Assembly: GCA_040954595.2 (NCBI GenBank)
Contig: CM082592.2
Coordinates: 4,356,735-4,420,734 of the forward strand
From: Balanoglossus misakiensis
Lineage: Eukaryota; Animalia; Hemichordata
DNA: 64,000 nucleotides
Direction: 5' to 3'
Below are positions 3,001 through 58,500 of the stretch, piece after piece (the first letter of the stretch is position 1; every line of letters starts with the position of its first letter). The notes beneath the pieces were generated by a model. The model saw only the letters and a program-made list of their open reading frames with translations, did not search any database and had not been told where the DNA came from. The position numbers and the translations under genes were made by a program.

Positions 3001-3520
3001 TCGGAAAGTCGAAAAATTTTCATTTTTTGATGATTTTCATGGGCTATAACCCTTGATTTTATTCCAAAAATCAAGAAATTTTGATATTTCGGAAAGTCGA
3101 AAAATTGTCATTTTTGGATGATTTTCATGAGCTATAACCCATGATTTTTCTCAAAAAATCAAGAAATTTTGATATTTCTGAAAGTCGAAAAATTATCATT
3201 TTTTGATGATTTTCATGGGCTATTACCCATGACTTTTTTCAAAAAATGAAGAAATTGTGAAAATTCGCAAAGTCGAAAAATTGTCATTTTTTGATGATTT
3301 TCATGGGCTATAACCCATGATTTTTTTTTAAAAATGAAGAAATTTTGAAAATTCGCAAAGTCGAAAAATTGTCATTTTTTGATGATTTTCATGGGCTATA
3401 ACCCATGATTTTTTTCAAAATATCAAGAAATTTTGAAAATTCGCAAATTCGAAAAATTGTCATTTTTTGATGATTTTCATGGGCTATAACCCATGATTTT
3501 TTTCAAAATATCAAGAAATT
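1..3520. repeat. AT-rich tandem satellite, ~87-88 bp monomer, about 40 copies, truncated by the window edge
   Basis: AAGTCGAAAAATTGTCATTTTT recurs at 11, 98, 185, 273, 361...; consensus ~AAGTCGAAAAATTGTCATTTTTTGATGATTTTCATGRGCTATAACCCATGATTTTTKTCAAAAAATSAAGAAATTTTGAWAWTTCGSA; ends abruptly near 3520. Confidence 0.97.
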
Positions 3521-6469: not shown

Positions 6470-24160
<17,691 letters not shown>

Positions 24161-27545: not shown

Positions 27546-30500
27546 TCAGAACAGCGCCTCCCTCGTCGTGTCTTCATCCCCTCCTCTTTCTGCAATATTG
27601 TCGTTAAGTCTGTGAAAAGTCCAGAGAAAATGAGAATTAAATTAACACTAAATGGGCGGTTATAGATTTTGTTCCGTCACGTCTGCACATATATGCTTCA
27701 ACGACCCTTCACCAAAGGCATATGTCGCCTGACCAAGTTGATTCAGACTGATTTCTGACAAATTTGACAATCTTGTTTTGCAGTCTGACCTACAATGGTC
27801 GACTGGCAGCCATTTTGTTTTCATTCAAGGTAAACTTACCTGGGATCCTCGTCTTTGGTTTTCGAAGCTTGACTGAAAAACACAAATTTAAAAACACTGG
27901 CTATAGTGTCGGCATGAGGGCGGGGTTGTCCCGTCCGGTGGCTAGCTTCAGATACGGGGTTCCTAACGACAGTTGCTTCAGTCAAATTAAGCAAAAAGTG
28001 TACACTGCTACAGTATACACCATAGCAAATTATGTGGTTGTTACTTTTTATTACAATGTACATCATGGCAAGATTCATTCCTTCAAAATGACCATGAACA
28101 GAGTGAAATTTAAAACAACTTACAGAGCGTCTTGTGGCAAGGCACTTTTGTATCCATCTTTCGAAATGAGAAAATAAGTGGTGAGCAGCCCTTTCCCCTG
28201 CAAGACAACAATTTAAACGACGGTTTGAATATTTCAGAAATACAGATACATGTATTTTCAAAATGTATGAAAGAAAGTGCGGTTCCACGTGTATAGGCTA
28301 CAATGACGACAGACAAAGCCTTTTTTGCGAAATGTGTACGTGCACAAAAGCGACATGACGACACCGCAACATAGCGTGACGTGGGCCGGGCGGTACACAG
28401 TTTACGCAGTTCGTATGCATTACATGTGCCTGACGTCATCACATGATGTGGGGGAGAATCTACATCGGATTTTCAGGATCACCGGATTGAAGATGAACTA
28501 ACACGGGGTTTTGTCTTACCTTCACGTTCACTTCGCCTCTCATTTTCATATGGTAACCCAAATTCATATCAGACAGGGCAGTGAACGTCTGTTTACTGAT
28601 GTGTATGTGAAATGCTATCAGAAATACAAAAATATGTTAAATGAATACCAAAAATATTGTCATTTTTATAATTAAGCAATAACCCCCGCCATAGGCAGGT
28701 ATTGTGTACAATTCGCGTTAGGCGAGTGGTATATGGAGCGATTTGTAGCCAAATCTCGACTGAGGCAGTGGTTATTGCTATTACATTATATCAAAAATGT
28801 ATTGTGTGGCATATCAGTGTCATCTTCTAAGAAGCATCAGAAAAAGTTAGCAGTGCAATAGATTGAGTATTTTAGCATCGCTGGATTGAGCCCTCGTACT
28901 ATCAGAATGACGGATGGTAACATGATATAATATAATTATAAATATTCGCTTGTTTGAAGCGTTAATGTTAAATTACTAGTAACTCGGAGTTGATTGAAAA
29001 TGATACAATTTCCCACCAAAATTGTCCGATTCTGGAGAAAGAATCGCTGATGGATACTGGCAAGCGAAAAAACTGGCCCTGCTGTTTCAGACAAAATGTG
29101 CACGCAACAAATTTACACATCACTATTCGTCCGAAGACAATGAGCTAATTCTACAGGTGCGTTGTGCTGTTTTCATTATTGTTCTCAGCTGTGCGTGGGT
29201 GTAGCTTGTAGCTCTACAGAATATTCATAATGGACGGATGGAATGAAAACCAAGCAGAGCCATTGCCGTCTTTAAATAAGTTTAAAGGCCGACGATCGTC
29301 TTATGCGCATGTGCGTAATTTCGTGTGTACATGTACATACACTCAGGATGATCGCCGCCCTTTAAAGAGGCATAGCCTAATATTCTTTACCCATACTACA
29401 AAGTCCCATGGTCGACAGTGGTACCGTCACTTACGTTTCCCCGTCGACTCCATTCGGGACGCCAAGTTGATGGTGTCACCGAACAGGCAATACCGAGGCA
29501 TGACGAGGCCGACCACGCCTGCAACGACGGGACCGGTGTGGATGCCGATGCGTAGCTGGAGCTTGTCGCGCGGGCGGTGGCGTATCTTGAAGTGCGTCAC
29601 GGTGCTCAGGAGATCCAGGGCACAGTTGGCGATCTCCGCCGAGTGGCGGTTGCCGTTCCTCTGCGGGACGCCGGACACTATCATGTACGCATCCCCGATG
29701 GTCTCAACCTGGCGAGGGGCAAAGCACATTGTGGCAACAAAAAAACTGAGCTCACTATTTACCACCGCGACCGTGAAATTCTGCGATGTGACATCAACTG
29801 TCCATATTATAAATCTCGGTTGAATTCTTCTGTTGATTAATGATGACATATAAACGCAAGAAGCCAATTTGCTGTGAATTGTCACTCTGACGGAAGTACT
29901 TTATTTGGCGCCAAAAATGCAAGCCACTCTCTACTCTGTTCGCTTTCAACATTTAACATTCGAACCAGCATTAGGGATTTTTGAAGGGGGTACAATATTT
30001 AGTTTTAAAGACAATCGGCTGAAAAGAGAGTGTGGCCTGGAGAGAGAGAGAACGTCCGCGGTCCTGTTGTTTTTAAAATATTGGTAAATGAACCGAATTG
30101 CTTTTCTGTAATTCCAGAACTGCTCGATGGCCAATCCAATTATCTATTTTTGTTCTAAAAATAAAAATAGTGTAATAAACTTCCCAGTAGGCATAGCACT
30201 TTCTGAAGGTCGACGTCTTCACCTTTGGGCGTGCGTTCTACCTGAATACAGTTCCAATGCCATTTTTGTGAAATTCATGACATGGATATAAAAGTGCCAT
30301 GCTGGACTTAGCCATCGTTTAGTTAGCCAGAACATAAATGATTACGCTCACCTCACACCATTAGTGGGTGGTATTGGAACGCAGTGGGGGTAAACATCAA
30401 ACAATGACTCACCTTGTACACGTCATGGTTGGAAATAAGTGCATCAAAGCAACTGTACAAGTCATTGAGGAAGTCGACAACCTGTAAAAATAACCAGAAT

Positions 30501-32576
30501 GACCTTTGAATATTCATCTACTACCATATATGGAAATCTATAAAAATCACACTGAAAGTGTAAGTCTTTGATGCATAGTACGTCATTTTTTGCGTCTACT
30601 CGTACGCCATTAGTATTATTGGACGGGTTTGGCTGCACGTTTTCCGAGCACGTGAACGCGACGCGTGACTGCGAATACGAGTCTCGGTGCTAAAAAGTAT
30701 TAAGATAGGGGGTTGTACTCATCTCCTGATAAAAAGGGGGCTTTTTCGGCGTGAATACAAAAGTGCGTTTACGCTGACGCGAGTGTAGATTTTACAAGTT
30801 CATGTTCGAGTAACGTGTAGACACAAGGGTGAAACATTCGCCAAATGGGCAGCGAGAAAGAGAGACTTTCTCCCTTTATTGCATTTGCAAAAAAATGAGA
30901 AATATACTCGAGATTAGAATTAACACGTATAATGAGCCGAGTTGTGAGAGTGCGGCTGTTTCAGTTCAAATTAAAGCTAGAACTTTAGACTTCCGATGTA
31001 GGATTAACTAACTGCCCAGTGTTCTATATTCAGATTACTCTCTTACCGTAAAATTCATGTCCTGGGCATAACCTACTGTGTGAAGCAACAAAAGCTCACC
31101 TGTATCGGCGTACTCTCTGACGACAATGTCGTAAAACCTACAATATCAGAGAAGTAGACAGTTGCAGACTCGTAATTCTGAGGCTCCACCATCTTGCCGA
31201 CTTTTAACTGCTCTGCAACAGTCCTGATAAATGAAAGAAACATCACATCTGTACGCCTTTTCTTCATAAACAGGGCGCCCGTCCAAGACGACGCGAAAAC
31301 GAGGCCAGTAGGTCACAGAGTAAACACTTTATTGTCTTGGGTATCGTCGCTATAGTTGGGATCGACGTTCGACAGCCACATTTTATTGTAAGGTAGGTGT
31401 ATTACAAGCAACCAGACGAGCTCGAGCAGTATTCTGTAACCTAATGGAATCGTTTGCGCGTCGTCTGCTTGGAGATGACGCCATGTTTTGGAAGGGCGCC
31501 ATCTTTACGAAAAAAAGGCGTATGCAAGCACATGTTAGTGCTCCCGTATTTTGTTATAACAAGTTCTGAAACATGCGCAGTAGTAATACATTGACATGAA
31601 AGGTTTGACCCAAATATGCCGACCGGCCTCCTCAGTGGCACTATAATAAAACCTTGCATTCTGTAGCTAACTCGTTCGTTTTGTGTCATATCGATAAAAC
31701 TGACTTACGGTGGCAGCATACGATACAGCAGACGATCAGTTTTCCTTTTTTCTTCCAGTAGCTGTTCTGTTCGTTCTTCTACAATTTCTTCCAAATTGTT
31801 GGAATATTTTTCCATCATGTTCATAATGTTATCCATTATACTCACATTTCTATCAAGAGACAAGACTTGTGATAAATATATTGCCTTTCTATCGCTGTAA
31901 TTTGCATATTTAAGCAATAACCCCCGCCGCAGGCGGGTATACACGAGATTTTGGTACAATTCGAGACATATAGCACGAGCCGTTATATATGGAAAATCCC
32001 CGCCAATTTTACAGCAAACCGAAAACATCATATCACATTCCTTCCTCCAATAATAAAGTGCAGGGGAGATATAATGGCTTCTCTGCCTTCTCCTGACTAA
32101 TATTAAACTGTTTTACGAATGGGAAGATTCGTTAAAGTGTGATTTCCTTCAATCGAAACCCAACATGAACGATATCCGCACAAAATAAGGCGGGAACACC
32201 ATGCGCGCGCAGGCATGTAGTTTCGTATACTGTGTTTCACCAGTCACTCACTCTCCTCCACAGATACTTTTGATGTCTCCTCGTATTTTGCTTGCACTGG
32301 GTCGGTCATCGGGATTCTCACTCCAACATTTCACCATGAGATGGAGAACAGCCTCTCCCATATCCTCTGTTTGGTTGTTACTTTGTAAAATGGGACGATA
32401 AGGGGTGCTTTCTCCGTTGCGAATGCGGTTGACAACATCTATGGAAAGGAAAACATGTTTCTAGGTTACTATATCCACCAATCGATAAATCAATAAATCC
32501 ATCCATCCATCCATCCATCCATTAATCGATCGATCGATCGATCGGCCGACTGACCGATCGATCGATTGATCGACCG

Positions 32577-32633
<57 letters not shown>

Positions 32634-35600
32634 GCAAGTAAGCAATCAAGCAAGCAAGCAATCAAGCAAGTGATCGATCAATGATCGCCCAATCAATCAA
32701 TGTTTGATTGACTGGTTGCATGGTTGGTTGATTGTTAAGTTGGTTGGTTGAGTGAGCGTGATTAAACGGGACCAACGGGCCAGTTTTAGTGTGTAGTCAG
32801 TATTAATCGGTTCCACACGCATCAGTATAGCATATACCTACCTCGCGGAGTTATGTGGTCAAAGGCGTACGGACGGGATCTCTCGATAATCTCGAACAGA
32901 ATGATAGCAAAGCTATAGATGTCCCCCTTCTGAGTTCCGTACACGGGCGGGAAGTTCATGCGAAGAAGTTCAGGCGCAGTCCAAAGCTTGCCTATGATAA
33001 AAGAGGGTAAGAGATAATATGTTTAGGCTGATACTGAAATAGTGAAACTTGTGAGGGAATCAACATTAGCCTATCGAGTACGGAATACCATAGTTTCTGG
33101 GAAAATACATGTAATACTCGTCTGAGAGCCTGGGCAGAATTAACAGGTGGCTGGTGCGATGATGACAAACCATAAACAATGTGTTCTGTACTGTTTCCAT
33201 TCCTTTCATGGTGTTTTAGACCCTTCATGGGTGCACCTTTAAATTTTCAAAAATACCTTACCCAAATAAAGTTCATGTTCATCGGCATTAACGTTTCTGG
33301 CTTGACCCTGCATAAAGCTCTGGAGACCGTAGTCGGTGATTTTCACCACCCATCGGCTGTCAATCAGGCAGTTGGATGATTTCAGGGTGCCGTGAGACCC
33401 GTTTCCGTGTTTGCTCTTGTGCAAGTACTCCAGTCCCTATGGAGGCATTGACAGAAGATTGTGAAATTGCTGTCAGAGCCGTTACAGACGTTATATGCTG
33501 AATGGCATCATACTAGTATTTGCAGTTTTGCTGAATGCACAGATTGTATCGTCGCTAGACATTTTCGTATTTTCAGACAAAGGTCAACAATGCCTGAAAG
33601 CATCGACAATTAAACGCCCACGATTACCTAATGCGCATGTGCGTAATTTCGTGTGTACAAACATTACGTCCAATCCAAATGTTCTGCAAATTTTGCGTTC
33701 GACGCATGCAAATAGTGGACTGCCTTCGCTTCCTTTCATATTTCATGCGTACCATATAAGTAGCCTCTTGTTTTATCCCTGACCCAATTTTCTTTCTTTT
33801 CCCGATCTGCCTTATAGCAATGACTGTATACATTTTTTTGTTACCAGAGTCTCTGGTTTGGCACATGCGCATGAGACGATCGTCGGCCTTTAAACTTATT
33901 TTTGTCACCTTTATTATATCAGCGAAGAAAGAAACTTTGAAGGCACGGTCGAGTTTGATGTCGTCATTCTCCAACACATCCTGTTGAGGAGACAGAAAAG
34001 GCGTCAACATTGGAGTACTTTCCACATATTGTCAACAGTAACACTGCATTTGGCAAACATATTCGAAGGAAAATAATTCTAAGGAGTGAAAGGGCAAGAA
34101 ACGTCAGCGACAGCGGGTCATGTGATGATACCAATTCAGTTTCATTTTCTTCAAAGGTTGGTTCAACCTCTGACCTTGCCTGTGGCAAGGTTCACGTTGG
34201 GAATCATGGCCCATAAATATACATGCAATTTAAACGAAATTCTCGCTAACTTAAAATAGCTTTTATACATGATTGGAGGGGTCAAATCACATAATAATAT
34301 CAACACATTGGTATTTGCTCTGTCACAAAATTCCAGTTATGCAGTATGATCAACATCAATTTAACTTATGAACGACGACCATCTTGAAATTTTGTCGACT
34401 GCTTGAGAATTTTCTCACTCACCTAGGTAGTAAAAAAACTACTTAATTCAGTGATGGTATATGAAAATATGGGTCGGGGATATTCAATCATTGTCTATAG
34501 CTAGCAAAGTATAATGCGCCTCGAAATTTAATGCTTTTTTATTCAAAAGCACGTCACAAGGTTTTAGTACAAGGTAAGAAATAAGATTTTTTTTATCTTA
34601 CAGACGTCTCGAGGCGCATGGTACCTTGTCGAAATTTACATATAGTACCTGTAGACTTCCTTTGTGGCAATATTGCCAGACCAGGCAGAGATCGGGATAT
34701 ATAACACAAGCCCCGAAAAATATATTCAGGTTTTCGTGATTGAGTTGACGTATCTAAAGTAGAAATGTAATACACACATTTGCACACAACAGACCAGTTT
34801 CACGACCCTTGCGTGACCTATTTCAAGACGGTGTTTTTGGTGGTATGTGGCGACCGAAGTTCAATTTGTTTGTTGCGACAAACGTCAACATTCCCTGAAG
34901 ATGAGATAGAGTGGAGGGGGGTTCAATTAAAGGGAAGGGGTCGTCGCGCCGCGTGGGTGTCCCTCTTGTTGAGAATATGTCCTCCCATACCAGCACAAAC
35001 CCCACTACAGTCGCCACGACCTACTAGGATCTGCAGTTGCTGTCATGCCCAGTCTACGCTACGGTTGGCTGCTTCGTTCATTCTAAGAATTATCTTATTT
35101 GAGGGATTTGTGGATGAATTGTAATGTTTATAAACAAACAAACGCGGCGTGACGACCCCTTCACTTTAAGTGCAAGTGCAAGGTCGTCGAAGAGGTTTCA
35201 AAGAACTTTGAACTGGTGGATTCATACCAGCAAAAACAACTGCATGGTTGTAAGGTCACGTAGAGTCCATGAAAATGGCGGAGAACAAACAAACTACCTG
35301 TAGGCTCCCTCTGGCACAGTATTGCCACACTATGAAGATGCAACCGGGATCCACGCATGCGCCGACGAAATTGTTCAGGTTCTCATGATTTAACGTTCGT
35401 ATCTGGACGAGAAAAATCGCGAATTACAATGGTTGTACCATGACACAGGGCAATACGATTGAGCTTGCACAGTCCGCCATCTTCTTGTCACTCATGTGCA
35501 CTGCAGCGATTAGTTGTGTACAATTTGAGAGTTGTCAATGTTATCATAAATTAATGCATGCATTCGACACGCGAAATGTGATTTTTACCCCCCCCCCCCA

Positions 35601-38600
35601 AAAAAAAAAATAAAACTACAAAAATGTAAATTTCGTTACAATTCAATCATGGTCACTCCTACTTGCTGGCCATACAAAAATTCAAAATAGTTGGATAGAC
35701 AGATTCAGGGTGTCAAAATTGTCCCAATTTAATACATTTCACATTTCGTTAAAACGTCAATAATTTGACTGAGATAGCCCCTAGTGACCTCTATCCTGAA
35801 TGTCAAAGTTGTACGGCAATACGTGTGGGTTTTTTAAAAGAAGCCTAGTGTATTGACCTACGATGGACAGATGATGTAAGCACAGCGGACGACGATGGAC
35901 AGTCGAACTGCCCGAAAAGTGCTACGTCAATGACAGCTGATCTAAAATTTGCTCAAAATATAACATTTCAGAATATATTGGGGAAAATCGGATTTAGATC
36001 ACAACTGCGGACCAGCATACCAAATTAATCGGGCAGGTGTATTCTGAGAAGAACACATCAATTTTTTTACCAAATCGGTAGAGATTGCCCCTAAAATAAA
36101 ATTCCCAGTCGTCAGAAATTGAACAACTATGGCTCAGATGATCCCCGGTGGCACGTACACCAAATAGCAACGCTAATATGAAGAGTGGTTTCTGAGATGT
36201 CGGTTGTTGACGAGCGGAAGCTGAACACCGCCGTCATCGGACGTTGGTGTGGACAGGAAGAAATGCCTTACTGTATCGTGTTACTGTATCGTATTACAAA
36301 ACAATCTGGCATGTTACTCACAATATAAATTCACACCACTACAGTGAAATCAAATCGAGGACACGCAACTGTCTATATGGTGTATTACACGTTTACTGGG
36401 ACAGAGAGAAGAATATAGTTATTCCCTTCGGCTAAGAAAGCGTCTCGATTTACACCTTTCATAAAATCCGCAATTATCAAAACGCCTCAAGTATACACGC
36501 GGGGAAATGAAAATCACCCATTGTGATCTGTAACCATCTGCTCAGACTATGTTACCATGGCAATTGCCTCGCGAGAATTTTAAAATGTCGCTACTAGAAG
36601 TAGCCGGCTGTGGTACATGTGAAAATAAAAATTCATCGATAAAATGAGTTATTAGACTTGCAAAAAGGTGCGCCACCATGGCCTTTGTTACACTTGGACA
36701 CGCCTTTCCAACCATATACGGGCAAATGTAAATTAGAGGTGATTGACAGGGTTACCTCACTGAATTCCACCAGTACTGTGCGGTTGATTTGCATGTGCTC
36801 TTTGTTTATCTTCTTGAGCGCCACTTGCACGCCTTTGTAAATCCCTGTCTTGCAGAAATATTGCACGCTCCGCGACGTGGCGTTGCTCTCAACGCCAGTG
36901 CCGTTGGAACCAGTGGATCCCACGTTGCTTGCGCCTGGCTTATTCAGACTTCCCTGAAGAGGACGACAACAAACTAGTCAAATTTGCTCGATAAACTACT
37001 ATAAAGCACGGCAGCAGAATGATTATAGCAGTCGGTTCCCGATTATAGGTAATTACATTATTCGGCTGATGATCGCCCTGTGAGTAGCTGCAATAATTGT
37101 AGCCTTGGTCACGGTGGGCTGGTTTGATCGAGCTGCATGATGGCCACCCAGCTCGATCAAACCAGCCGGCCGCCCACTAAGGCTACAGTTATCGCACCTA
37201 CTCTGTGAGCGGCGTGAAATTCTCGGCACCGGACAATTTTCAATAGTTTATACTTGAAAAAAGCTGCCAAAATATACACACGACATGTATAACAGATATA
37301 TCCCATGTGTTAGAACATTTCCCAGCAAAAATGAGATTTTAAAATTGCCTGTGCAGGGAAACTGTACAATGGAGATACAATTGTGTAATCCTGGCACCAC
37401 CAGTCGACAGCATAAAGTACAGTGAACTTGAACTCGCGCGAGCGTACCTGACTGTTGCTACCTGTTCCACGGTGTGACCCCAAATTCAAAAGCTGTATTT
37501 CGTCATAGAGAATTCGCCATCGCATGTTTATCAGGTCTGCTTCGTACTGAAAATGCCTGAGAGGAGAAGGTTGACGTAAATGATATGCAAATTCAAAGTT
37601 GCAAAAAGGTCAGTCAGAGTTCAAGACTAATGCATGCCCTGCACCTGCAGCGACAAGAACTGACCAATCAGAAGCAACCTTACCTAATTATAATATTATA
37701 TACAATAGCTCGGTGGTAAAATGTTATAATGCAGGTGGTTCTGAAATATTGCCAACTGTTTTTAAGCGTAGATCAAGAAACCAAAGTCAACACACCGACA
37801 GCAGTACAACTACTCTGCCGCCCGCGAGTATCCGAAATCTTTACCCACCTAAAAAGATACACAAACAGAATTGTGCCGACAACAATGACCAATGCACCAG
37901 CAGCGAACGATATTATGTAGATATAGGTATCTGCAGAAAAAGGGGGAAATGAGACAACCGTTAGAAACCGTCCAGAGTTTTGTAGTTCGATTGTTGTCTT
38001 TTAATACAAACAGTGACACGCATTTGTAGCTCCTGAGCCGGCCTTGCAATGAAGGGCACAGTCAGTGACAGCTTCCAGTGGGGCGTATTGAATGGATAAT
38101 GGTCTGGGCAGTATTACGTGCGGGGGGGGGGGCACTGGTGTTTTTTTTTAAATCTAGATCCACGAAAAATAGCGACCTCCTCCATAATCTGTTCATGAAA
38201 AAAGACATTTTCGGGGTTTGTTTTATTTTCTGTACTTACAGTCCTCGCCTTTGCACAGCTCGCCGTCAAATCCACAGATTGGTGTATCGGGAGGCGCGAA
38301 CTCATGACCCACGCGCCCATCTCCCCAGCGAGGTGGTGAAATATGACGCATTATCTGCGAAGGAGAAACGCAGATTGGATCCTACATTGGCAATCTATAT
38401 CCATAGTATCTTTGATCACATATCTTGTAAATTTGAAAGTGAATCGGTGAACGGTATAAATGTTCGAACGCGCCGGTAGCTATAGGCAGAAACTGTTTTC
38501 AGTATCGTTTTATTTTTTATTTCCTCCAGTGAAGACTATTCTCTGAGGTACAAGCTGGCATTTATTTATGTCATGTATTATCGGTATAGTTTGTCCCGTT

Positions 38601-41600
38601 GTCTCCTTATCATAATTTCGAATGTGTACAAATTCGCCATTGCGGAGAAATATCCCACAATACCCTGCGTGGTACTTACACGCGTTCCATTTTCCAGGTT
38701 CAGTATTTCAGATATCTTCTCGAAGATTCCATTAGATTTCAAGTCTGTAATCCAGTAATCTGGTTCGCGGTCGCCAAACTCGTCCATGAGCAGGTTACCT
38801 GTCATCCCTTGCGAATAAGAGGGTTTGGAAGGAAGGACAACATTAAACTAGTCTGTCATTTGAAATGTCTAAGAAATTTGCATTGTATTCACGGAGGTGG
38901 TCGTCTTGAAGTCTTGGTTGTGACGTCACACGGCGGCCATTTTAATTTGCTCAGAATCCTGACAGTATGGCAACTCTGGCTGCGTTAAATAGGTGTGTAC
39001 AACTCACCGTAGTAAGGGTTTGAAGAAATGATGTATTAAAACATTCTTTCTTGTATTTAACATATTAAACTCATTGAACTTTTCTTTTTCACATTTTGTC
39101 ACTTTTTACACAAAGTTTCAGAATGACCCAGTATCACTTTAGCTAATGAACTTCCAAAAATCGGCCATCTTGAAATTGTGTCGACTATATGAGATTTTCA
39201 CCACTCACCTAGGTAGCCAAAACCTATTTAAGATAGCGAGAATATTGGCGCATACCTTACCCTTTGCACGGCGCTGCCAGAGGTAGAATTCGGACAGGGG
39301 AAGTTTTACTAGTACCCTATTCAGACTTGGACTGATGAGGGCGTTGTTCAAGTGGCTCGTAGAATTTGAATTCAATGATTTTCTGTGAAAGTGCTCAAAC
39401 TGCAATCGCACTTACCTTTGAAAAATTTCCCAGACATAGCCTGCAACATCACTTCGCCATCACGGTAATCGTTGCCATTGGATACAGTCTCGTTGAGTGC
39501 GATGACGTAAAGTATTAGGGCATCGTGGAGAAAGGCGGCGTACTTATTACCCTGCGGTAAATCAGAGATTGGAAACACGTGACAGTGCACTTGGTTCTCG
39601 CATCATATACCTGGATGTTACGTCCCTGTATAACTCTATATAGGTACGTGCAGTTTTTTCCTTTGTTATGTACTGTGTGTTTTGGGGGTGTATAACAGAC
39701 CAACCCGGTTCGGTTGCGAGCCCAAATAACATCGGCGCGCATTCCTGAACTATTTTCTTTCTCATTCCTCCGCGCGCGTTGTGTTATCCGTAAACGTTCT
39801 GTCCGTAAAGCGCATTAGCTCGCAGGCCTCATCATGGCTTTGATGGTATAGCTACGCGAAAAGCTTGCGACAATGACCAAGCGGGAACTATATCGTTGCA
39901 AATATTAAAAAAAAAAATTGTGGCTGGCCAAATTTGGCCACCCACACACGTACATACATAAATATACTTACACCTGATATTGTTCGTAAAGTTGACCCAC
40001 TCTATAAATATATAAATGCAGGAATGCGTTTTAGATCTGTTATGAATATCGGTCGCTCACCATAGCCGTGGAAATTTGGTTCCCACTGATCATGTATTTG
40101 CCGGTTTCAAGGACCCCCGTCAACAATGTCAACAGCAGAAAAGATGAACTCGACCACGACCATGACTCGACAAATCGATCTTGCCGCTGTTTGTTTTTTT
40201 GCACTGACACCGACAACGTTTTTAATGACAACTTCTGCGGATGGTCGAGAACGATTACTTGCAACGCTATCAGTCCTAGGTCTGCAACTGTGTGACACAT
40301 CATCTCCCGCAACATATTGTGCGACGTGCCAACAATTTTAGTGAATCGACGCGTCAAAAAGATCCGTCACGCGAAGATATTCAGTTCATATCTGGAGCCA
40401 TTATTAAACCATTGTTGAATCACTTTTCTTCAGACCTGACACTAAGACACTGTGCCATCAAATTCACGCCTACGTCAATTATATTTGTATTGCAATACTA
40501 TCCAGTATGGCCGATAGGCGGCCATTTTGTTACGATTTTTCATGTCCAGAGCACTTTCATACACTTCGCGACACAAACCAATATGGTCGTCCGGTGGCCA
40601 TTTTGTTTTGATTTATTGTCGTCTGGAACAATTAATCAGACATATCTGAGCCGACATTGGCATAGATATTATATTATACACGTTCAATTTGTGACATGAC
40701 ATGATCCGATATGATTTCATTCCGACAATATGCTTGCCTATCACTCAAAACTGCCAGAACCATTTTATAGTTGACTCACGGGTATAATCGCGTTTGACTG
40801 AAGAGCTATGGCGTGTTTGTGTATTTCAGTTTGCATAATAATATGTACAAATGTGGCTGCCAGGTAGCCATTTTGATAAATTAAACACGATCCAGCGGGA
40901 ACTATGTCATTGACAACAATGACATTGTTAAGCCTTGGCTACTGTCGTTGCAAATATTTAATATTTTTCCTTTTTGGCCGGCCAGGTTTGATCACCTACA
41001 CACACGTACATACATGAACATACTTACAGCTGTTATTGTTGGTAAGGTTGTGAGTGACCCATGCTATAAACAAATGCAGAAATGCGTTTTAGATCTGTTG
41101 TGAATATCGGTCGCTCACTATAGCCGTGAAAATTTGGTTCGGGTTGGGAGAAAGGAATCCCACTCACTCCCCTCCTTTGCCTATAGGTGCATGCCAAGAA
41201 ATGCGCAAAAACGTTTTCAATGTCCAATACCTTGATCCCTTCCTGTAGAGTCTGGTTCCAGGGGGCGTCCTGTAAACGACGCGCCACTTCAATTGTGAAA
41301 TCGTCGATTTGTCTGCCACTCAATGCTGCCAGCGAGACCTGGGAACATTAAAGGTACACTGGCTCTAATTTTTGTTATTTGGTCATTTGATTTTTTTTCT
41401 GAAAATGATGAATATAGAGATCAATAGAACTCGTCCAAATTTCATATTAGTTACCAGATACCTGTCCACACCCTTCAGCATGGATTCAATAACTGTACAA
41501 GTTCACACTTAAAGATGACACACTTACATGAAACACCGACTCAAATGCCTGCCTGGCTTCATCGTTTCTTCCGTCGTCTCCTAGATACGTCTCCTCCGCC

Positions 41601-43901
41601 GTGACAACGTCTTCGTCCGGCAACATCTCCACGGTGTAGTACACGAAGTCGCCGTTGGTCATTCCCATGGAGTAGGCTTCCAGTAGGAACATGCGGCGGT
41701 CATTTTTGGGCGCCGATATAAAGATAACTGAGGAGAAATATAAGACACAAGAGTATCCAACAGGCGTTCATTTAGCTGCACGGGATATTACTGGAACAGC
41801 TGCAGAAGAAGCGATGCTGTGCACGCTGTATATATAGGTACCTGCACAGCGTCTGAAATTGTTCGTTCGAAACCATCTCACGTGGAAATCATATGAGCAT
41901 CACTGATTGCTATGGTCATGCATTGTTCATGGTGGAAGCGTCAAGCTTTATGCTTTTCGCCCTGATTTAAGATACAATAAGTTGACGAAGCCCAAGAATG
42001 CAACTTCTAGCACTATTGTTGTCTGCTCTTGTAAATAAAAAAAAAACAATCGCGCGAGTTATGCATGGCAAAATGCTGTTTTTCTCTCTGAATAACCGAA
42101 CAAAATCAAACAATTTGTGAAAATGCAACCAGACTGAATCGCAGCTTTAAGCTTACTGTATATACGGTTTCATGACGCTATAACCAGATATAAAAATGCA
42201 CGTGCAAGTATATATTTTTCTGGTAGTATACTTACTGCGTCCTTCCGCCTTTGCCTTTGTAAGTATGTTTCGCACTTGCTTAATGGTAGGATTGTTGTCG
42301 TAGGCTACATAGTACGCGATGGTGATGTTGTTCTCGCCGAAAGTCTGAAATACAAAGGTTAACGATCAAACCTTTCTCCATGTGAATCCATGAGTATACT
42401 GGGTATATATTAGCATGCTGTTTGGACAAGTTAAATAATTGCATTTGACAATGCAGCTCAAATAAAGGTCGAGTGTCCCACCTTCAGAAAGGCCTTTGAC
42501 GCATCCTGATAGAGCAGAAACGTCGACGAAATCAGGACGACTCGCTTCCAGTTGTAGTTGTTCAGAATCTCGTTCAGAAAGAAGCCGAGTTTGCTGAACG
42601 ATCCCAGGGTTCGGCCCAGAGTGGTGTACGTGGCCGTCTTGTCGTTGAAATCTGGATCCGTCGCCACCCACGATATGATTGGAATATTCCAGAATGATGC
42701 CAGCTGTGCTGCTGTCATACATGCTTTGGGAAATAAATAAATAAATGAATTAACAAACAAACAAACAAACAAACAAACAAACAAACAAACAAACAAAATC
42801 ATAAATAGAAACAATAGATTAATGGAAGCTTAGAGTAAATCGGATCCGCAACTCAACAATTGTTTTCATTCTTGTCGTGAAACGTCGCAATTTCGTGTTC
42901 TCATGCACTGTAACACATACCCTATGCTATATTTAATCTAAAACAAGTGTCGTAAGGAAAACTGTATACCCTCAAAAGAAAATGAATTATCCAACAATTC
43001 GGTGAACAAAAGTTCTAGTACACGCCTAATATTGAATCGCATGGAACAATATTTTCTCTAACAGTCCTTACTTTTTCGTACCAAAGAAACTCACCTATTG
43101 AACACGGAGGGCCTATGACGACATCAACACGCTCTTCGACGTGGAGTTCCACCATGTAGCCACCGGCCTGTTTGCTATCACATGCCGAGTCTCGAGTGAC
43201 GATCCTAGAAAAGAAGGGGATTCCAATAAAAACAATTCTTTTCAAGGTATAGTTTGCGCTTCGAGAACAGATAATCCCCAAAACCGTTCGATACATCGCT
43301 ATATCAAAGTACGTGGGACGTCATTTTGATATTTTTCATGAAAAAAATGATTTGTGCGTTTTCTTACTGTGGTCAATCTCTGAAATGCTCTATTTTATGT
43401 GAGGGACTTCAAAATGTTTGGGACTTCTTTGGCTTCGTCAGTGATAAGTTTTCAACCACACCCCCCTTCATCCTCCGCCACTACAAAGTGTGTGCCCTCA
43501 CTCTTTCTGTTACCCCCAAAAAATTGCCCTGAAACAGGGAACTTTTGCGTGGGGAAACATGTATAATTCGAGATTCAGTTACTACACGTTCTAAAGCTAA
43601 TTCTCAACTCGAATTTTGTGTTATGACAATCAGGGTTTTCTAGAAAACGTTATAAGTGCGGCTGCCACGTCGACACTTACTCGAAGTCAACCTCTTCAAC
43701 CAAGTCCATAGTCTTGATGTAGTCTATGGCGATGTTCAGCGCGCCGGCGCTCGTCTGGCCGCTGAAGTTATCCAGTTCGTCGATGTTGGTCCACGGTGCC
43801 AGAAAACCAACTTTGATTTTCAGGACCGAGTCGCCTCTCTGGATGCAGACACTTAAAACCACCACCACCGCAATTAACAGAATATGTAATCGACGACGCA
43901 T
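27546..43901 (-). CDS. Receptor guanylyl cyclase paralog 2 (NPR/GC-A-like), spliced, with a duplicated kinase-homology exon
   Basis: Exons (minus): 43681-43901, 43095-43204, 42482-42723, 42236-42344, 41528-41727, 41231-41338, 39416-39551, 38680-38807, 38240-38354, 37849-37930 (TM), 37448-37556, 36756-36953, [35298-35402 or 34649-34753], 33909-33980, 33262-33436 (HGTLKSSNC), 32842-32991, 32252-32438, 31709-31849, 31100-31223, 30413-30481, 29435-29708 (VETIGDAYM...MPRYCLFGD), 28520-28614, 28124-28197, 27840-27872, 27546-27609 (...REALF*). GT-AG boundaries; phases consistent where checked. Confidence 0.94.
29282..29365. mobile_element. MITE family B, internally deleted copy
   Basis: TTAAAGGCCGACGATCGTC...GATGATCGCCGCCCTTTAA, 84 bp. 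Confidence 0.65.
32498..32700. repeat. (CCAT)/(CGAT)/(CAAT)/(CAAG) compound microsatellite
   Basis: Read directly. Confidence 0.92.
33610..33893. mobile_element. MITE family B copy
   Basis: TTAA flanks; 3' end GCACATGCGCATGAGACGATCGTCGGCCTTTAA; internal AAATGTTCTGCAAATTTTGCGTTCGACGCAT shared with the 27122 copy. Confidence 0.72.
34649..34753 (-). CDS. rGC-2 alternative exon 13b (tandem duplicate of 13a)
   Basis: 105 nt, phase 0-0, acceptor TTTCTACTTTAG, donor GTACTA; [35 protein letters not shown], no stops. Confidence 0.88.
34794..35278 (-). other. Predicted intronic RNA stem-loop between rGC-2 exons 13a and 13b
   Basis: 34794-34847 is imperfectly complementary to 35223-35278; 34927-34954 is complementary to 35142-35169 at 26/28 positions. 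Confidence 0.8.
35298..35402 (-). CDS. rGC-2 alternative exon 13a (kinase-homology domain)
   Basis: 105 nt, phase 0-0, AG/GT flanked; [35 protein letters not shown]. Confidence 0.9.
37082..37203. repeat. ~120 bp foldback hairpin in rGC-2 intron 11
   Basis: Perfect 19 bp stem 37117-37135 / 37149-37167 plus an imperfect outer stem (GAGTAGCTGCAATAATTGTAGCCTT / AAGGCTACAGTTATCGCACCTACTC). Confidence 0.8.
39061..39243. repeat. Dispersed repeat family A; other copies at ~16662-16858, ~34325-34447, ~51890-51972
   Basis: Shared core GGCCATCTTGAAATTGTGTCGAC...CACCTAGGTAGCCAAAACCTATTTAAG in introns of all three paralogs, at non-homologous positions. Confidence 0.8.
39880..41140. repeat. Imperfect ~200-245 bp direct repeat pair in rGC-2 intron 6
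   Basis: ~39880-40082 resembles ~40895-41140 (AATGCGTTTTAGATCTGTTRTGAATATCGGTCGCTCACYATAGCCGTG). Confidence 0.75.
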
Positions 43902-52509: not shown

Positions 52510-55500
52510 GACTGCACATACTCATACATACACAAACACACATACATACATACATACATACATACATACATACATACATACATACATACATACATACATA
52601 CATACATACATACATACATACATACATACATACATACATACATACATACATACATACATACATACATACATACATACATACATACATACATACATACATA
52701 CATACATACATACATACATACATACATACATACATACATACTAAAATAGATGCGTGCAGGTCACGTACACCAAGTGTTTTGCAGCGTGGGGAAATGTAAA
52801 AGAAAAAAGATAGAGGATCACACGACTGCTCTTAGGTTGTTCATCAATATGATGAGTTTACAAAGTTTCGACGTTTCACCCCATGATTAGGGCTTATTCG
52901 TGCATATTTAATTATAACTAACCTCATTAAACTCAAGCAACACGGCCCTGTTAACCTGAATGTGTTCCTTGTTGATTTTCTTCAGGGCGATAGAAACACC
53001 TCGATACGTGGCTGTTCTGGCGAAGTACTGCACAGTGCGATTGGATGGGGCTGAACTCTTGCCGTCAAAACTGCGCTGTGAGGTACTGGATGAGTGTTTA
53101 GACATGGCAGATGGCGAATGTGAACCCGAGGTACCCGGCTGTGAGAGAGAGAGAGGGGGGGAAGAGACAATGAGACAGAGATAGAGAGAGAGGGACAGGA
53201 AGAGTATTGCACAAAATATGATGTAACCTACTCCGAATGTTGACGTCACAGAGTAGACGTGACAAATAAGTCTACAGTTTCAAGCAGTCTCTATGAGGAC
53301 ATCGATGGGTGATATATATATGGCCAGAACATTCTCATTTGAGAGTACGGTTAGCGTAACAAAGAGTGGTAGAGGTATTTATTTGCAGGAAACATCCGTA
53401 ACAAGGGCGTGTATAAGAGGTGTGGTTTATCCAAATTGGTGCAAATAATATTCATGCCAATATATGATGAGACATTCAGTGTTGCACCATCAGGTATTGA
53501 CGAAAATTGATACAGATTGAAGGGATATAAAACGTGTGTAAATATTCGTTCTGTATACGTGATTTAAAGTAGATCGCAAGGCGAATGGTGTGAGGTTAGA
53601 TCAAACTGGCATTGTTATGTTTTATCGCATCAACAAAAATACTGAATGTAAATTTCACGCATGTGTCGAGGAAATTTGTCAATATCTTACATGGCTACCC
53701 TTTTCAAGAGAACCGAATTTTCCAAAACTGCCGGAACCTCCAGAGATGAACCGGACCTCTTCCATGTGCACCTTCCATCTCATGTTCAACAGCTCGCCTT
53801 CAAATTTGCTGCGCCTGAAACATAGATGTAAAAAACTAGTTAGAATATTGTCATTTTCCTTATGTTTATATATATTGTTTATCACTTAATGTTAAAGTGA
53901 ACCGACACCTTCCTTGTAGAGAGATTCTAATAAAATCTTTGTGAAAAACATGAGTGATTTGCGTCGTTTTTATTCACTTTCACTTATCGCGCAGCAGCGT
54001 AGCGTCGATCTCGATATGCAGCGTGACGTCACAAACTAGTCACCAGTAGCAGACGCCACCGTGCGCACGCTAACGTACACAGACAGTTGACATGGGTGGC
54101 TGCCTCGCAAGTGGGAGCAAAAACAGAGTTGGCAAAAACACGGCGAAAGGTTTTATAAAAGTTCCCGACCCTTCAGGGACAGTCAAAATGCAAATCGAGC
54201 TGGAAATTGGGTGTCAAACATTGGCATATTATTTCGGTGCTTATTGCTGAGACAGATGATACTTTTGCTTCGGAAATGTTCGTGTTCAACTAGGCCCTAT
54301 ATCGTGAAGCATATTGCAAAAAAAAACTACACAGCAAAAATTGTCGAAACAGCCGGGGCTCCTGATTACCTTTGATCACCATATGACGAAACCGATTTTT
54401 TGGCACTGTAAATCAAAACTCTGATCGGAAGAAAGTAGTGTGGCGGAAATAGGCCTACTAGTGAACACTGTGTTTGTCGCGTACCCAAGCTGTGAATGCA
54501 TCGCAAAACCATTTCCAAAGACAAAAACGACCACCTCTACCATCTGGAAGCACCACAGATGTACTCGAAACATGACAATCGGAGTTTCTGCCTCCCTTTG
54601 ATCAACAAAGCCGCATCTTTTCACAGCTGTTGATCAACGTAAAGGATGGTAGACACGTGTGGTAGACATTTTCGCGAGAGTGTCAATAGGTTTACTTTCT
54701 ATTCTTTTGGGAAATCACGAGGGTGCCTATTATGACATGGGTGACTAAATGTCAAAAATTATCGCATGGCTTCGTGATATGTCGTTCAAGTCTTTATCTA
54801 ACGGCCTTGTCAAGAAATCTATTTCATGGCAGCACCGGCATTCCTTGACAGTAGAAATAACTTCGCATTTACCGCAGCGCAGCTACACCATGAGCGTGAT
54901 GAAAGACGAAGCCGATCACTCTTCTCGATCGTCTTTGCTGTCTACACTTGCCTCTGTACTATTGGAATCAGTTTCACTTGAGTCGCCTACCATCTCATCG
55001 CTGCTGTATTCGGGTTCGTACAAAAATCCGACGATATCTTCGTTTGAAAACTCCATATCGCGTGGTCGTTTTTGTCTTTGGAAATGGTTTTGCGATGCAT
55101 TCACAGCTTGGGTACGCGACAAAAACAGTGTTCACAAGTAGGACTATTTCCGCCACACTACTTTCTTCCGATCAGAGTTTTGATTTACAGTGCCAAAAAT
55201 TCGGTTTCGTCATATGGTGATCAAAGGAAATCAGGAGCCCCGGCTGTTTCGACAATTTTTGCTGTGTAGTTTTTTTTTGCAATATGCTTCACGATATAGG
55301 GCCTAGTTGAACACGAACATTTCCGAAGCAAAAGTATCATCTGTCTCAGCAATAAGCACCGAAATAATATGCCAATGTTTGACACCCATTTTTCAGCTCG
55401 ATTTGCATTTTGACTGTCCACCGAAGGGTCGGGAACTTTTATAAAACCTTTCGCCGTGTTTTTGCCAACTCTGTTTTTGCTCCCACTTGCGAGGCAGCCA

Positions 55501-58500
55501 GCCATGTCAACTGTCTATGTACGTTAGCGTGCGCACGGTGGCGTCTGCTACTGGTGACTAGTTTGTGACGTCACACTGCATATCGAGATCGACGCTACGC
55601 TGCTGCGCGATAAGTGAAAGTGAATAAAAACGACGCAAATCACTCATGTTTTTCACAAAGATTTTATTAGAATCTCTCTACAAGGAAGGTGTCGGTTCAC
55701 TTTAAGGACAGCGCATAAGAGCACTTTTCTTGCGGTAAAAAGACATATCATCGATCGTGAATGTTTTACTTACCGGTATAACCAAATGCCAAGGGTTGTA
55801 ACCGCGCCGGCCACAATAAAACTGGCGGCAAAGGCAGCAACGTAGATGGATGCATCTAACAAAAATAGACGTGGCTTTAGACTGTCATTTTCTCGTACGA
55901 ATGTTTTTGCTGAAAGGCCGACAATCGTCTCATGCGTATGTGCCAGAACAGTATATACTATACTTACAGTTATTTCCTTTGCACCCCGAAAAGCCGCACA
56001 CGGGCGTGTCCGGCGGGGCGTACTGGTGCCCGACCTTGCCACCCGGCCACCGAGGTTCCCGAAGCTGGCGAAACACCTGAAACAGAACATTGAAACAGCT
56101 TTCAGTCCAGCTGCGCGCGTCCCTCCCACAGAATGGTTCGAACGCGTTGCTTCGGACTCCCGCCAAATAGGTCATCACAGAACATGCAGGAGGTCGTTGG
56201 TGACCGTCTCTAAGGGCAGTTTATTAATTCAATAGTCAGTGTGTCGACCTCATTTCTATAGACTGCAGTCTATAGAAAGTTGTTCAAACTAATAGCTCGG
56301 TGATTGGAAAGTATCCGCGACCATGGACAAGTCAAATGTATGCGTGCTGTACTGTTAATGGACCAGTGAGTCAACACCTTATGTATATACACGTGTCATT
56401 CTTTCAGCATCGAACAAGATGCGGCCAGTGAAGATATTATAAATCTGATTGTTATCCCCAAATAACGCCTGTTGTACCCCAATAATGCCTCATCTTACCC
56501 TTGTACCATTATCCAAGTTCACAACTTCAGAAATCTTCACAAAGACGCCGTTCGGTTGCAGATCTGTGATCCAGTAATCCGGCTCCCGGTCGCCGAATTC
56601 GTCAATCAGGACATTTCCGGTCATCCCTGCAATAAGTTTTGACAAATTTAGTGAGATAATGTTTGCAGAAACGCTGTGTTCATAACTAATATAATGGTAA
56701 CATTTAGCATAGCAGAACTATAATGTGTTAATCAAGAACAATATTATCGCCTATACTATTAGTTCAATGTAATGCACTTTAGCACATCAATGTTGTGTAA
56801 TCTATATAAATCAATTTGATTATCTGAAAACTAATGTTTGTTGATTTTTGCAGTTTCCAGTATGTTTCACACCATGGCCAATGGTTTTCGTGTAATTAGC
56901 AAGAAAGATTACACAACTTGCGATTTTTAAGAGAAGCATAGTGGTAAAGGATTGTACCAGCTCTGAAGCTCACTATTATATACCTCAAATTTTAGACATC
57001 TTGCCAATCACAAATTTTTACCCTAGGCCAGGCAAATTAAAAAGACACGTCTTTTTATGCACTGTATATGGCCAAATGATAATTAGTGGTTACCATTTAC
57101 CATGGAAACCTTCAAATGCCGTAGTTATGGTTACCAAGTGATCTGCAGCGGGCCTCCCTGTGGTGTATCAAATCAAAACCGCACTATCGATCGTTGGAGC
57201 AGATTAATGTACAATTCTTTAAAAAACCCAAATGTCAACTGAGAGACACTTTGCTACCTTTGAAGAATAAACCGGAGAGAGCGTTTGCGATAATCGTGCC
57301 ATCTCTGTAGTCGAGACCCTGTGACACTGTCTGATTTAGAGCAAGCACGTAAAGAATGATGGCGTCGTACAGGAAGGGGGCGAACTTATTGCCCTGGAAG
57401 AGAGAGAAAGGCATAACGAGCTCGTCTTAGAAAACGGTGAAGAGTATATACGACAAGTCGGTGTCCAATCCTGTCAGAGACCCTCATTTTGCGTGATAAC
57501 TGGAGCCCATCAAAACTCAATCTGGTTAAAATCAGGTGTAGGGTACGCCGACGTCTTTTACTTACACGGTACGGTATTCTTAACGGTCGAATGTATGGTA
57601 TGATATTATACCGACGAAAACTACCAAGATGGGACGCAGGCATAGTGATCGTAAAGGGGTTCGCATAGTGAATGTCGCAAGACAGACGGCTTTACCCAGC
57701 TCGGTTGCCCCATTTTGATGACTTCAATGATAACGGGCTAGAGTAACGATATAATGAGGGTCTCAGACAGAACTAAGCGTTTTCACAGAGGAGCCACTGC
57801 CAACCACAATTGAAGGTAATTCTCGCTCACCAGTCAATGGGTACTAACATCGCCTCTTGCGTCACAAAAAGACAATTATCTGACAACATTTCACATTGCA
57901 ACCTTTAAATGCCGGTGACAGTGGCTCTTCTGGGACTGCCACATGCGTGTATAGTACCTTTGAAGAATTTATTTCGCATAGCGTCGAGCATAACCTCGCC
58001 ATTTCTATAATTTTTCTGAGCAGCGACAGTTTCGTTGAGGGCGAGGATGTATAGTATCATAGCATCATAGAGGAACGCAGAATACTTGTTGCCCTATCAA
58101 AAGATAAAGGGTCGTCAAATTCACATTGTAGAAAAAAAATACATGTATTATGTATATATTTCCGATTCTCACATTCGCTTTATATATTACCTCCCAGAAG
58201 AAAGCCCAGTATAACGTTTCCCAGGTATAATCTTTGATAATAAGTACCTGACTGTATTCCTGTCATTTAATTTCCTTGAAGTAAAAGAACATGGAACTTA
58301 TGCAGTTGTTATTAATTGTGAATTTAATTAAAGTCACCAAAATATATGTATGTATTCCAAAATTGAAATTCGGTGAGCGAATATAAGTTCGCGACGTACC
58401 CCCTCCCCTCCATAAGTTTATGGACTTCGCATTTTGAACTTCAGCAACAATCTTGGACAGTCCCGAAGTTGTCGGCGATAGGCCAAGTTTGGCCAATCTC

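Follow-up and report, generated by a model that had tools for sequence, protein, structure and literature searches.

Candidate competing RNA pairings at a duplicated exon of a hemichordate receptor guanylyl cyclase gene, with a transposable element in the intervening intron

In human ATE1 two RNA elements, R1 and R4, which lie upstream of exons 7a and 7b, respectively, compete for a third, R3, located between the exons, as documented by compensatory mutations (PMC7797038). Disruption of R1R3 increased 7a and disruption of R3R4 increased 7b, and with R3 blocked both exons were included (PMC7797038), while the duplication model predicts that the two competitors resemble each other (PMC6071210). 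In the OGDH exon pair 4a/4b branch points lie 25-41 nt from the donor in the linear sequence, and transposon insertions impaired exclusivity (PMC7969005); the linear donor-to-branch threshold cited is ~50 nt (PMC7969005; PMC5740500). Modelling in yeast gives a minimum linker of 42 nt, with stems above this minimum aiding splicing (PMC12350175). Here we compare with these systems a locus from the hemichordate Balanoglossus misakiensis. The DNA analysed (the window) is a stretch of 64,000 nt (assembly GCA_040954595.2, contig CM082592.2, positions 4,356,735 to 4,420,734), and the system in question is exon 13 of GC-B, a likely NPR-like receptor guanylyl cyclase gene, which is present as two copies, 13a and 13b, separated by an intron that is predicted to fold into a long stem. 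The reading that we favour, tentatively and as somewhat short of probable, is that two competing pairings predicted for the transcript, U:D and D:S, govern the choice between 13a and 13b, with a miniature inverted-repeat transposable element (MITE) carried as a passenger in the loop of the stem.

Predicted competing pairings at exons 13a and 13b

Exons 13a and 13b (Table 1; coordinates are those of the window) are identical at 23 of 35 residues and 64 of 105 nucleotides. Different codons encode 15 of the 23 residues common to both, a ratio that equals the one found between 13a and the GC-A exon, and on sequence grounds the pair is an old duplication. Exon 13 is doubled only in GC-B, being present as a single copy in each of its two neighbours, GC-A and GC-C. 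Both copies retain their length, AG/GT splice sites and an open frame, and thus display the features by which tandem homologs are recognized as mutually exclusive exons, namely equal length, equal phase, intact splice sites and frame. The GC-B protein comprises 1075 amino acids with either exon, 1110 with both and 1040 with neither, in no case with an early stop; as joint inclusion and joint skipping are frame-neutral, nonsense-mediated decay cannot enforce the choice between 13a and 13b. Exon 13 maps to the kinase-homology domain of human NPR1 (aligned via the ortholog P0003) where, by our own reading, it covers the region from the end of helix C up to the hinge. Both exons are presumably expressed, and it is quite probable that they are used alternatively.

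The two exons could, alternatively, be used without exclusivity, with one of them a silent relic, or with isoforms made that include both or neither, while the stem in the intervening intron acts as a zipper that aids intron removal. Such use is compatible with the finding that all four exon combinations are in frame, with the Ptychodera flava model XP_070573591 (P0076), which passes from exon 12 directly to exon 14 without exon 13, and with the promotion of splicing by zipper stems in yeast (PMC12350175). The P. flava record, however, is an automated model, and two exon-13 copies were found in none of the hemichordate ortholog models P0003, P0012 and P0100. Furthermore, although third positions are saturated, both copies in GC-B have kept their frame, length and splice sites, and as the exon lies inside the kinase-homology fold its doubling or loss would likely break the domain. 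Non-exclusive use is therefore regarded as improbable. An alternative exon-13 isoform was not found among the cluster members examined for 10 proteins.

The pairings that may underlie the choice involve three short elements of the transcript (minus strand): U upstream of 13a, D just past the 13a donor and S upstream of 13b (Table 1). U (35484-35473) and D (35282-35271) are predicted to form 12 contiguous pairs, one of them G-U, at -18.1 kcal/mol, and the pairing is predicted to extend to ~35444, over the 13a donor. In the long stem of the 13a-13b intron (the outer stem) the basal 5' arm is again D, which is predicted to pair there with S; U:D and D:S use the same bases of D and are therefore mutually exclusive. 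In folds starting at 35560 the probability of U:D was 0.94-0.99 at every length and that of D:S 0.03-0.09, with the inner helices of the outer stem at 0.99-1.0, and these values hold when the MITE is removed. When each conformer was forced, that with U:D reached -259.3 kcal/mol versus -254.7 kcal/mol with D:S, a gap of 4.6 kcal/mol, and U:D is predicted to attain a probability of 0.99 as soon as D is transcribed. In the conformer with U:D a further predicted helix, 35523-35513:34790-34780, would surround 13a together with almost all of the 13a-13b intron, and would place the upstream intron 26 nt before 13b.

U:D is the strongest exon-flanking helix among 58 internal exons of the locus when a 120x60 nt window is used. 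It ranked first in 14 of 20 window settings and within the top four in all 20, and its strength was attained by 1/1000 shuffles and at 18/1500 random positions. A helix of -16 kcal/mol was reached by none of 28 distinct foreign exon-13 flanks.

These predictions suggest how the choice could be made. U:D would form first during transcription, cover the 13a donor and loop out 13a, yielding 12-13b-14. Displacement of U by S would free 13a, and D:S would then hold the 13a donor too near the 13b branch point, or would bury a branch adenosine (-47/-61), such that 12-13a-14 is produced; the MITE would ride in the loop of the stem. Both the exclusivity of 13a and 13b and its dependence on these pairings are inferred.

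Two further structures were noted near 13b. A 13-bp complementarity, 34820-34832:34378-34390, would loop out 13b; one arm is an internal loop of the outer stem, the far arm is in a repeated stretch, and the pairing is absent from the helices with a probability of at least 0.3. In addition, a hairpin (34505-34628, minus strand; 13-bp and 7-bp helices, probabilities 0.92-0.95) is predicted to begin 21 nt past the weak 13b donor, its 3' arm falling in a bin of raised contig depth.

Table 1. Window coordinates of the genes, exons and predicted RNA elements discussed in the text.
Feature	Coordinates	Strand	Basis and remarks
Element U	35473..35484	-	71-82 nt before 13a; predicted 12-bp helix with D loops out 13a; R1-like
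Element D	35268..35282	-	16-30 nt past 13a donor; common arm, pairing predicted with U or S; R3-like
Element S	34793..34804	-	40-51 nt before 13b; predicted basal outer-stem helix with D; R4-like
Upstream arm of further predicted 11-bp helix	35513..35523	-	pairs with 34790-34780, probability 0.89
Outer stem, 5' arm (predicted)	35208..35279	-	folding, alignment; depth 66 (X1), 192 (X2) in the bin with most of this arm
Outer stem, 3' arm (predicted)	34793..34864	-	folding, alignment; depth 54 (X1), 147 (X2) in the bin to the left of the MITE bin; branch-like A at -61, -47
High-copy MITE (inner stem)	34927..35169	.	TTAA at 34927-34930 and 35166-35169; terminal inverted repeats 26/28 including TTAA; contig depth, loose ends
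Exon 13a	35298..35402	-	105 nt, phase 0/0, kinase-homology domain
Exon 13b	34649..34753	-	105 nt, phase 0/0
GC-B (host gene)	28100..43901	-	23 coding exon positions, GT-AG introns, open frame, homologs, tree; end of last exon approximate
GC-A	~62100-47950	-	NPR-like receptor guanylyl cyclase
GC-A duplicated exons 7a/7b, region	57258..58202	-	7a 58093-57958, 7b 57393-57258; helix 58202-58192:57935-57925; two stems in 7a-7b intron
GC-C	~24160-9200	-	NPR-like receptor guanylyl cyclase

The 13a-13b intron: a predicted outer stem around a transposable element

The intron between 13a and 13b (35297-34754, minus strand, GT-AG, 544 nt) lies where the preliminary description of this DNA had placed it. 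That description held that the intron folds end to end, with an outer and an inner stem. Folded in isolation the intron indeed closes from end to end (energy -172.1 kcal/mol, z -4.30, 0/100 shuffles), the arms of the inner stem match at 26 of 28 positions, and the motifs quoted for the outer stem, as well as the flanks of 19 and 40 nt outside it, were found in place. The corresponding figure of ~59 unpaired nt (19 + 40) is correct for the isolated intron, but once the 158 nt upstream of 13a are added the basal helix is formed only at the probability of 0.03-0.09 reported above. The fold is also not a single unit, since the inner stem is a multi-copy element and the outer stem is single-copy.

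Copy number was gauged from contigs of public genomic DNA runs (one sample, which may be the source of the window itself) aligned to 32800-37600, with contig depth counted at an 80% identity cut-off; summed depth is not equal to copy number. The bin covering 34893-35053 displayed depths of 184,667 (X1) and 647,653 (X2), placing the inner stem thousands-fold above its flanks, which include the two bins with the outer arms (Table 1). In each of three runs loose contig ends accumulated at 34927 (107, 79 and 8 contigs, respectively) and at 35169 (103, 77 and 9), positions that coincide with the ends of the inner stem given previously, and the flanks beyond these loose ends are unlike one another (agreement 0.35-0.47). 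The inner stem is almost certainly a MITE. No empty site was present among the joints listed at the MITE, where junction contigs reach only 26 and 30 nt into the element, short of the 31 nt required for a call. The refuting condition set beforehand, that the intron is a multi-copy transposon with terminal inverted repeats, thus applies to the TTAA-ended inner stem and not to the outer stem.

The MITE comprises 235 bp between its TTAAs, and both termini begin with AG. A piggyBac identity for this TTAA-ended element was dropped because of the AG termini, as piggyBac elements end in CCC. T2 MITEs are characterized by TTAA and terminal AGGRR, and Kolobok elements by TTAA and RR termini (PMC6004289). 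The element likely belongs to the Kolobok/T2 type, judging from the likeness to T2/non-autonomous Kolobok elements (PMC6004289) in its TTAA ends, AG termini, short terminal inverted repeats, length and very large number of copies; its left terminus, AGGGA, fits AGGRR, whereas the right one, AGTGA, differs by one change. This copy departs from the family majority at six or more places, and its insertion is probably far more recent than the duplication of the exon.

Without the MITE the intron is 305 nt long and retains the outer stem, with z reduced from -4.30 to -2.44 (3/200 shuffles), and the folded donor-to-branch distance remains unchanged at 40. Most of the folding z-score thus comes from the MITE, which contributes nothing to the geometry proposed and is probably a passenger in the loop of the outer stem. 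More generally, a striking end-to-end fold of an intron can be largely the work of a transposon.

The outer stem itself is both single-copy and unusual. Its arms, over 77 aligned columns, display 56 Watson-Crick pairs, 3 G-U, 4 A-C and 14 other mismatches, and the alignment score of this inverted repeat, 48, was matched by 0/2000 shuffles. By arm score it ranked second among the 46 introns of at least 301 nt (17 of 63 modelled introns being left out by this length), rank 1 falling to an ordinary GC-A intron that carries a large TTAA element (score 120), and the score was reached by 4/2951 random frames, all from one locus. The inner helices of the outer stem have probabilities of 0.95-1.0 in every fold that contains both arms, and at the 80% cut-off both arms are at single-copy depth.

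An origin of the outer stem as a decayed inverted-repeat element, or as a neutral inverted duplication, needs to be considered; U:D would then be a chance pairing between motifs that are common, and splice-site strength and proteins would set the choice. Other transposable elements in the window bear on this. A high-copy element at 33610-33893 has TTAA ends and a terminal match of 22/28, and a TTAA-bounded element at 53892-55705, whose inverted repeats of ~644 bp are 98% identical, makes a GC-A intron fold over nearly its whole length; a third element, high-copy by depth, spans about 58545-58900, its right end not being pinned. TTAA inverted-repeat elements such as the first two are thus common in the window, and one of them folds an ordinary intron, which is in keeping with a relic. 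The same holds for the composition of the outer stem: the suggestion that some of its mismatches become G-U pairs on the transcribed strand failed, as 3 G-U stand against 4 A-C on that strand, and folding of the opposite strand gives energies that are no higher (-174.8 versus -172.1 kcal/mol; -82.5 versus -76.7 kcal/mol without the MITE). Similarly, the outer arms resemble the MITE interior over stretches of 15-25 nt, 34986-35000 being a direct match to the outer 5' arm at 35223-35237 in 14 of 15 positions (0/300 shuffles by one test), and the 13b donor ranks only 60th of 63 in strength. By local alignment, however, the likeness to the MITE is weak (14 and 19 of 1000 shuffles, in four comparisons). 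In the folds, a competing pairing between the outer 3' arm and the interior of the MITE had a probability of 0.0. A relic is also opposed by the single-copy depth of the arms, by the absence of TTAA at the ends of the stem, within 6 nt of which only two 4-nt direct repeats occur, and by the position of the two best flanking helices of the locus, both on first copies of duplicated exons (see below). As a decayed element of less than 80% identity would escape contig depth, the outer stem may still be such a relic, an explanation that we consider unlikely on balance.

The preliminary description had proposed that the fold brings the 13a donor within ~50 nt of the 13b branch point and so blocks 13a-13b joining. 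Its setting, a pair of duplicated exons, was borne out; the distance is not diagnostic of a block. Using helices with a probability above 0.8, and with 8 of 63 introns excluded for length, the folded distance from donor to -25 was below 50 in 15 of 55 introns, 12 of which lie between non-duplicated exons. A short folded donor-to-branch distance is thus common in predictions. The linear distance from the 13a donor to the branch point is ~520 nt. No strong branch consensus occurs in the last 40 nt before 13b. Candidate branch adenosines at -28 to -13 would give a donor-stem-branch linker of 29-44 nt in the D:S conformer, and adenosines with U at -2 are located at -15, or at -47, -61 and -70 within the outer 3' arm. 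This linker is at or below the 42-nt yeast minimum, and a steric block of 13a-13b joining in the predicted D:S conformer is therefore possible.

It has also to be asked whether a steric block acts alone, a stable outer stem leaving too short a distance between the 13a donor and the branch point of 13b, with U:D being due to chance. The rarity of the outer stem and the high probability of its inner helices are consistent with this view, as is a linker of 29-44 nt when set beside the 42-nt modelled minimum (PMC12350175) and the ~50-nt threshold (PMC7969005; PMC5740500), and the GC-A intron that separates exon 7a from 7b likewise contains stems that reach from about +30 to -36. The basal helix, on which the short distance depends, is nevertheless out-competed by U:D, leaving the D:S conformer as a minor one, 4.6 kcal/mol above its rival. 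The frequency of folded distances under 50 speaks against a block of this kind, as does the folded-distance score of 87 for the GC-A 7a-7b intron, and in yeast stems between donor and branch point usually aid splicing (PMC12350175). A steric block on its own is thus rather unlikely as the explanation.

Two broader searches added little. Over 33900-36800 Rfam returned a single match, outside the intron (E 0.7, 21 bits versus a gathering score of 59.5), and windowed duplex scans between introns were uninformative, revealing long scattered duplexes of similar energy throughout.

The guanylyl cyclase locus and a parallel case in GC-A

The only duplicated exon found besides 13a/13b is exon 7 of GC-A. 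Its copies, 7a and 7b, are 136 nt long, share 24 of 45 residues and belong to the extracellular domain. The helix flanking 7a ranked second of 58 in the 120x60 nt window, a result obtained out of sample, and its strength was attained by 6/1000 shuffles and at 29/1500 random positions; it was within the top five in 15 of the 20 window settings. Both of the strongest flanking helices among the 58 exons are on first copies of duplicated exons. In the 7a-7b intron (z -2.09) there are two stems with 12-bp cores and extensions, which lie at low-copy depth around a repeat in the loop. A second haplotype of 57743-57970, with 19 other letters and 5 gaps, extends across the 7a donor and stem 1.

A shared design is one way to view the two cases: GC-A and GC-B would each have evolved their own duplicated exon together with the same RNA arrangement, comprising a helix that loops out the first copy and a long intronic stem, and the resulting lock would, unlike OGDH, be insensitive to transposons in the loop. 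Of the two pairs, 13a/13b would belong to the ATP-regulated pseudokinase and 7a/7b to the ligand-binding domain. We consider this doubtful.

Several observations weigh against the proposal that competition between U:D and D:S governs the choice of exon 13. All structure is predicted from one genome. The 120x60 nt window was picked after U:D had been seen, such that only the rank of 7a is out of sample, and with an 80-nt upstream window the 7a helix falls to ranks 10-37. U and D both contain the motif GCCATYTT, which we take to be YY1-like and which occurs 17 times in the window (14 on the plus and 3 on the minus strand). The regions of U and S do not resemble each other, 936/2000 shuffles scoring as high, and no strand or G-U bias was found in the outer stem. 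D:S is rare at equilibrium, and the second copies have no comparable helix nearby, the flanking helix of 13b ranking 16th and that of 7b 37th. In GC-A the core helices of the U:D counterpart and of stem 1 have just 3 nt in common, and the two are for the most part present together (0.49 and 0.91); moreover, as 136 nt shifts the frame, a frameshift could enforce exclusivity there.

GC-A, GC-B and GC-C are three tandem NPR-like receptor guanylyl cyclase genes, all on the minus strand. All 63 modelled introns of the three genes are GT-AG, a set that is without the introns around GC-C exons 4 and 10. The closest relatives of the window proteins are hemichordate proteins. In a tree built without exon 13 by a quick method, GC-B groups with P. 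flava XP_070573591 (82% identity, support 100), next to which stand the orthologs from Glandiceps (96) and then Saccoglossus (80). A tree of exon 13 itself places 13a with the GC-A exons and the Saccoglossus ortholog (79/73) and 13b with the Glandiceps ortholog (32.5/65), leaving the date of the duplication unsupported. The Glandiceps ortholog model scores closer to 13b (138 versus 127) and that of Saccoglossus closer to 13a (128 versus 116), weak hints from automated models. A metagenome scan returned 49 distant loci (43-60% identity), none of them orthologous, and no blastn match to the 13a-13b intron; two of the 49 (L002:1500-1934 and L007:1866-2250) contain extra, degraded-looking tandem copies of exon 13.

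Elsewhere in the window, GC-C lacks, at 10821-11013 (minus strand), the intron between exons 19 and 20 of GC-A and GC-B, and positions 1-3521 consist of an AT-rich tandem array with a period of ~88 nt and copies that are ~91% identical.

Comparison with known splicing switches

A search of the literature, covering titles and the starts of abstracts with most subscription journals outside its range, returned nothing on this locus, nothing on exclusive exons in the kinase-homology domain of a receptor guanylyl cyclase, and no MITE within such a stem. Among systems of a related kind, Dscam exon 17 is said to combine steric hindrance with RNA structure, as reportedly described by Yue in 2013. In Drosophila srp exon 4 (PMC4691838) the first exon is looped out when a selector located between the exons pairs with an upstream element, as 13a is predicted to be by U:D in GC-B. 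A second pair in srp loops out the second exon; in GC-B the sole candidate for such a role is the 13-bp pairing 34832-34820:34390-34378 mentioned above. The zipper stems of yeast (PMC12350175) resemble the outer stem in that an intronic stem links the donor and branch regions. They differ in that they require a linker of 42-85 nt and a distance of 20 nt or more to the branch point, and promote splicing, whereas D:S would leave 29-44 nt.

With the steric-interference exons represented by OGDH (PMC7969005) and by a human survey (PMC5740500), GC-B would share a donor-to-branch distance of less than ~50 nt, in this case only in the D:S conformer; the block envisaged in the preliminary description is of this known, steric type. 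The difference from OGDH (PMC7969005) is that in GC-B folding would bring about the shortening, and the predicted distance is unaffected by an insertion in the loop. The loop MITE represents a natural test of whether it is the folded or the linear distance that counts.

The closest parallel is ATE1. In both cases one element between the exons can pair upstream of the first or of the second exon, this being predicted for D with U or S. R1 and R4 are alike, are conserved across vertebrates and overlap splice sites (PMC7797038), whereas U and S are unlike and lie 40-82 nt from the acceptors, and the predicted D:S helix of GC-B continues into an imperfect stem of 70 nt. As U and S are unlike, and the resemblance between competitors expected under duplication fails, the proposed GC-B switch would work like ATE1 without being a member of its class. 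We are left with a credible candidate for a switch of a kind already known, together with a sister case in the adjoining gene. If true, it would constitute a compact (~1 kb) ATE1-like switch in a hemichordate, and would provide for isoform switching within the pseudokinase domain of a receptor guanylyl cyclase.

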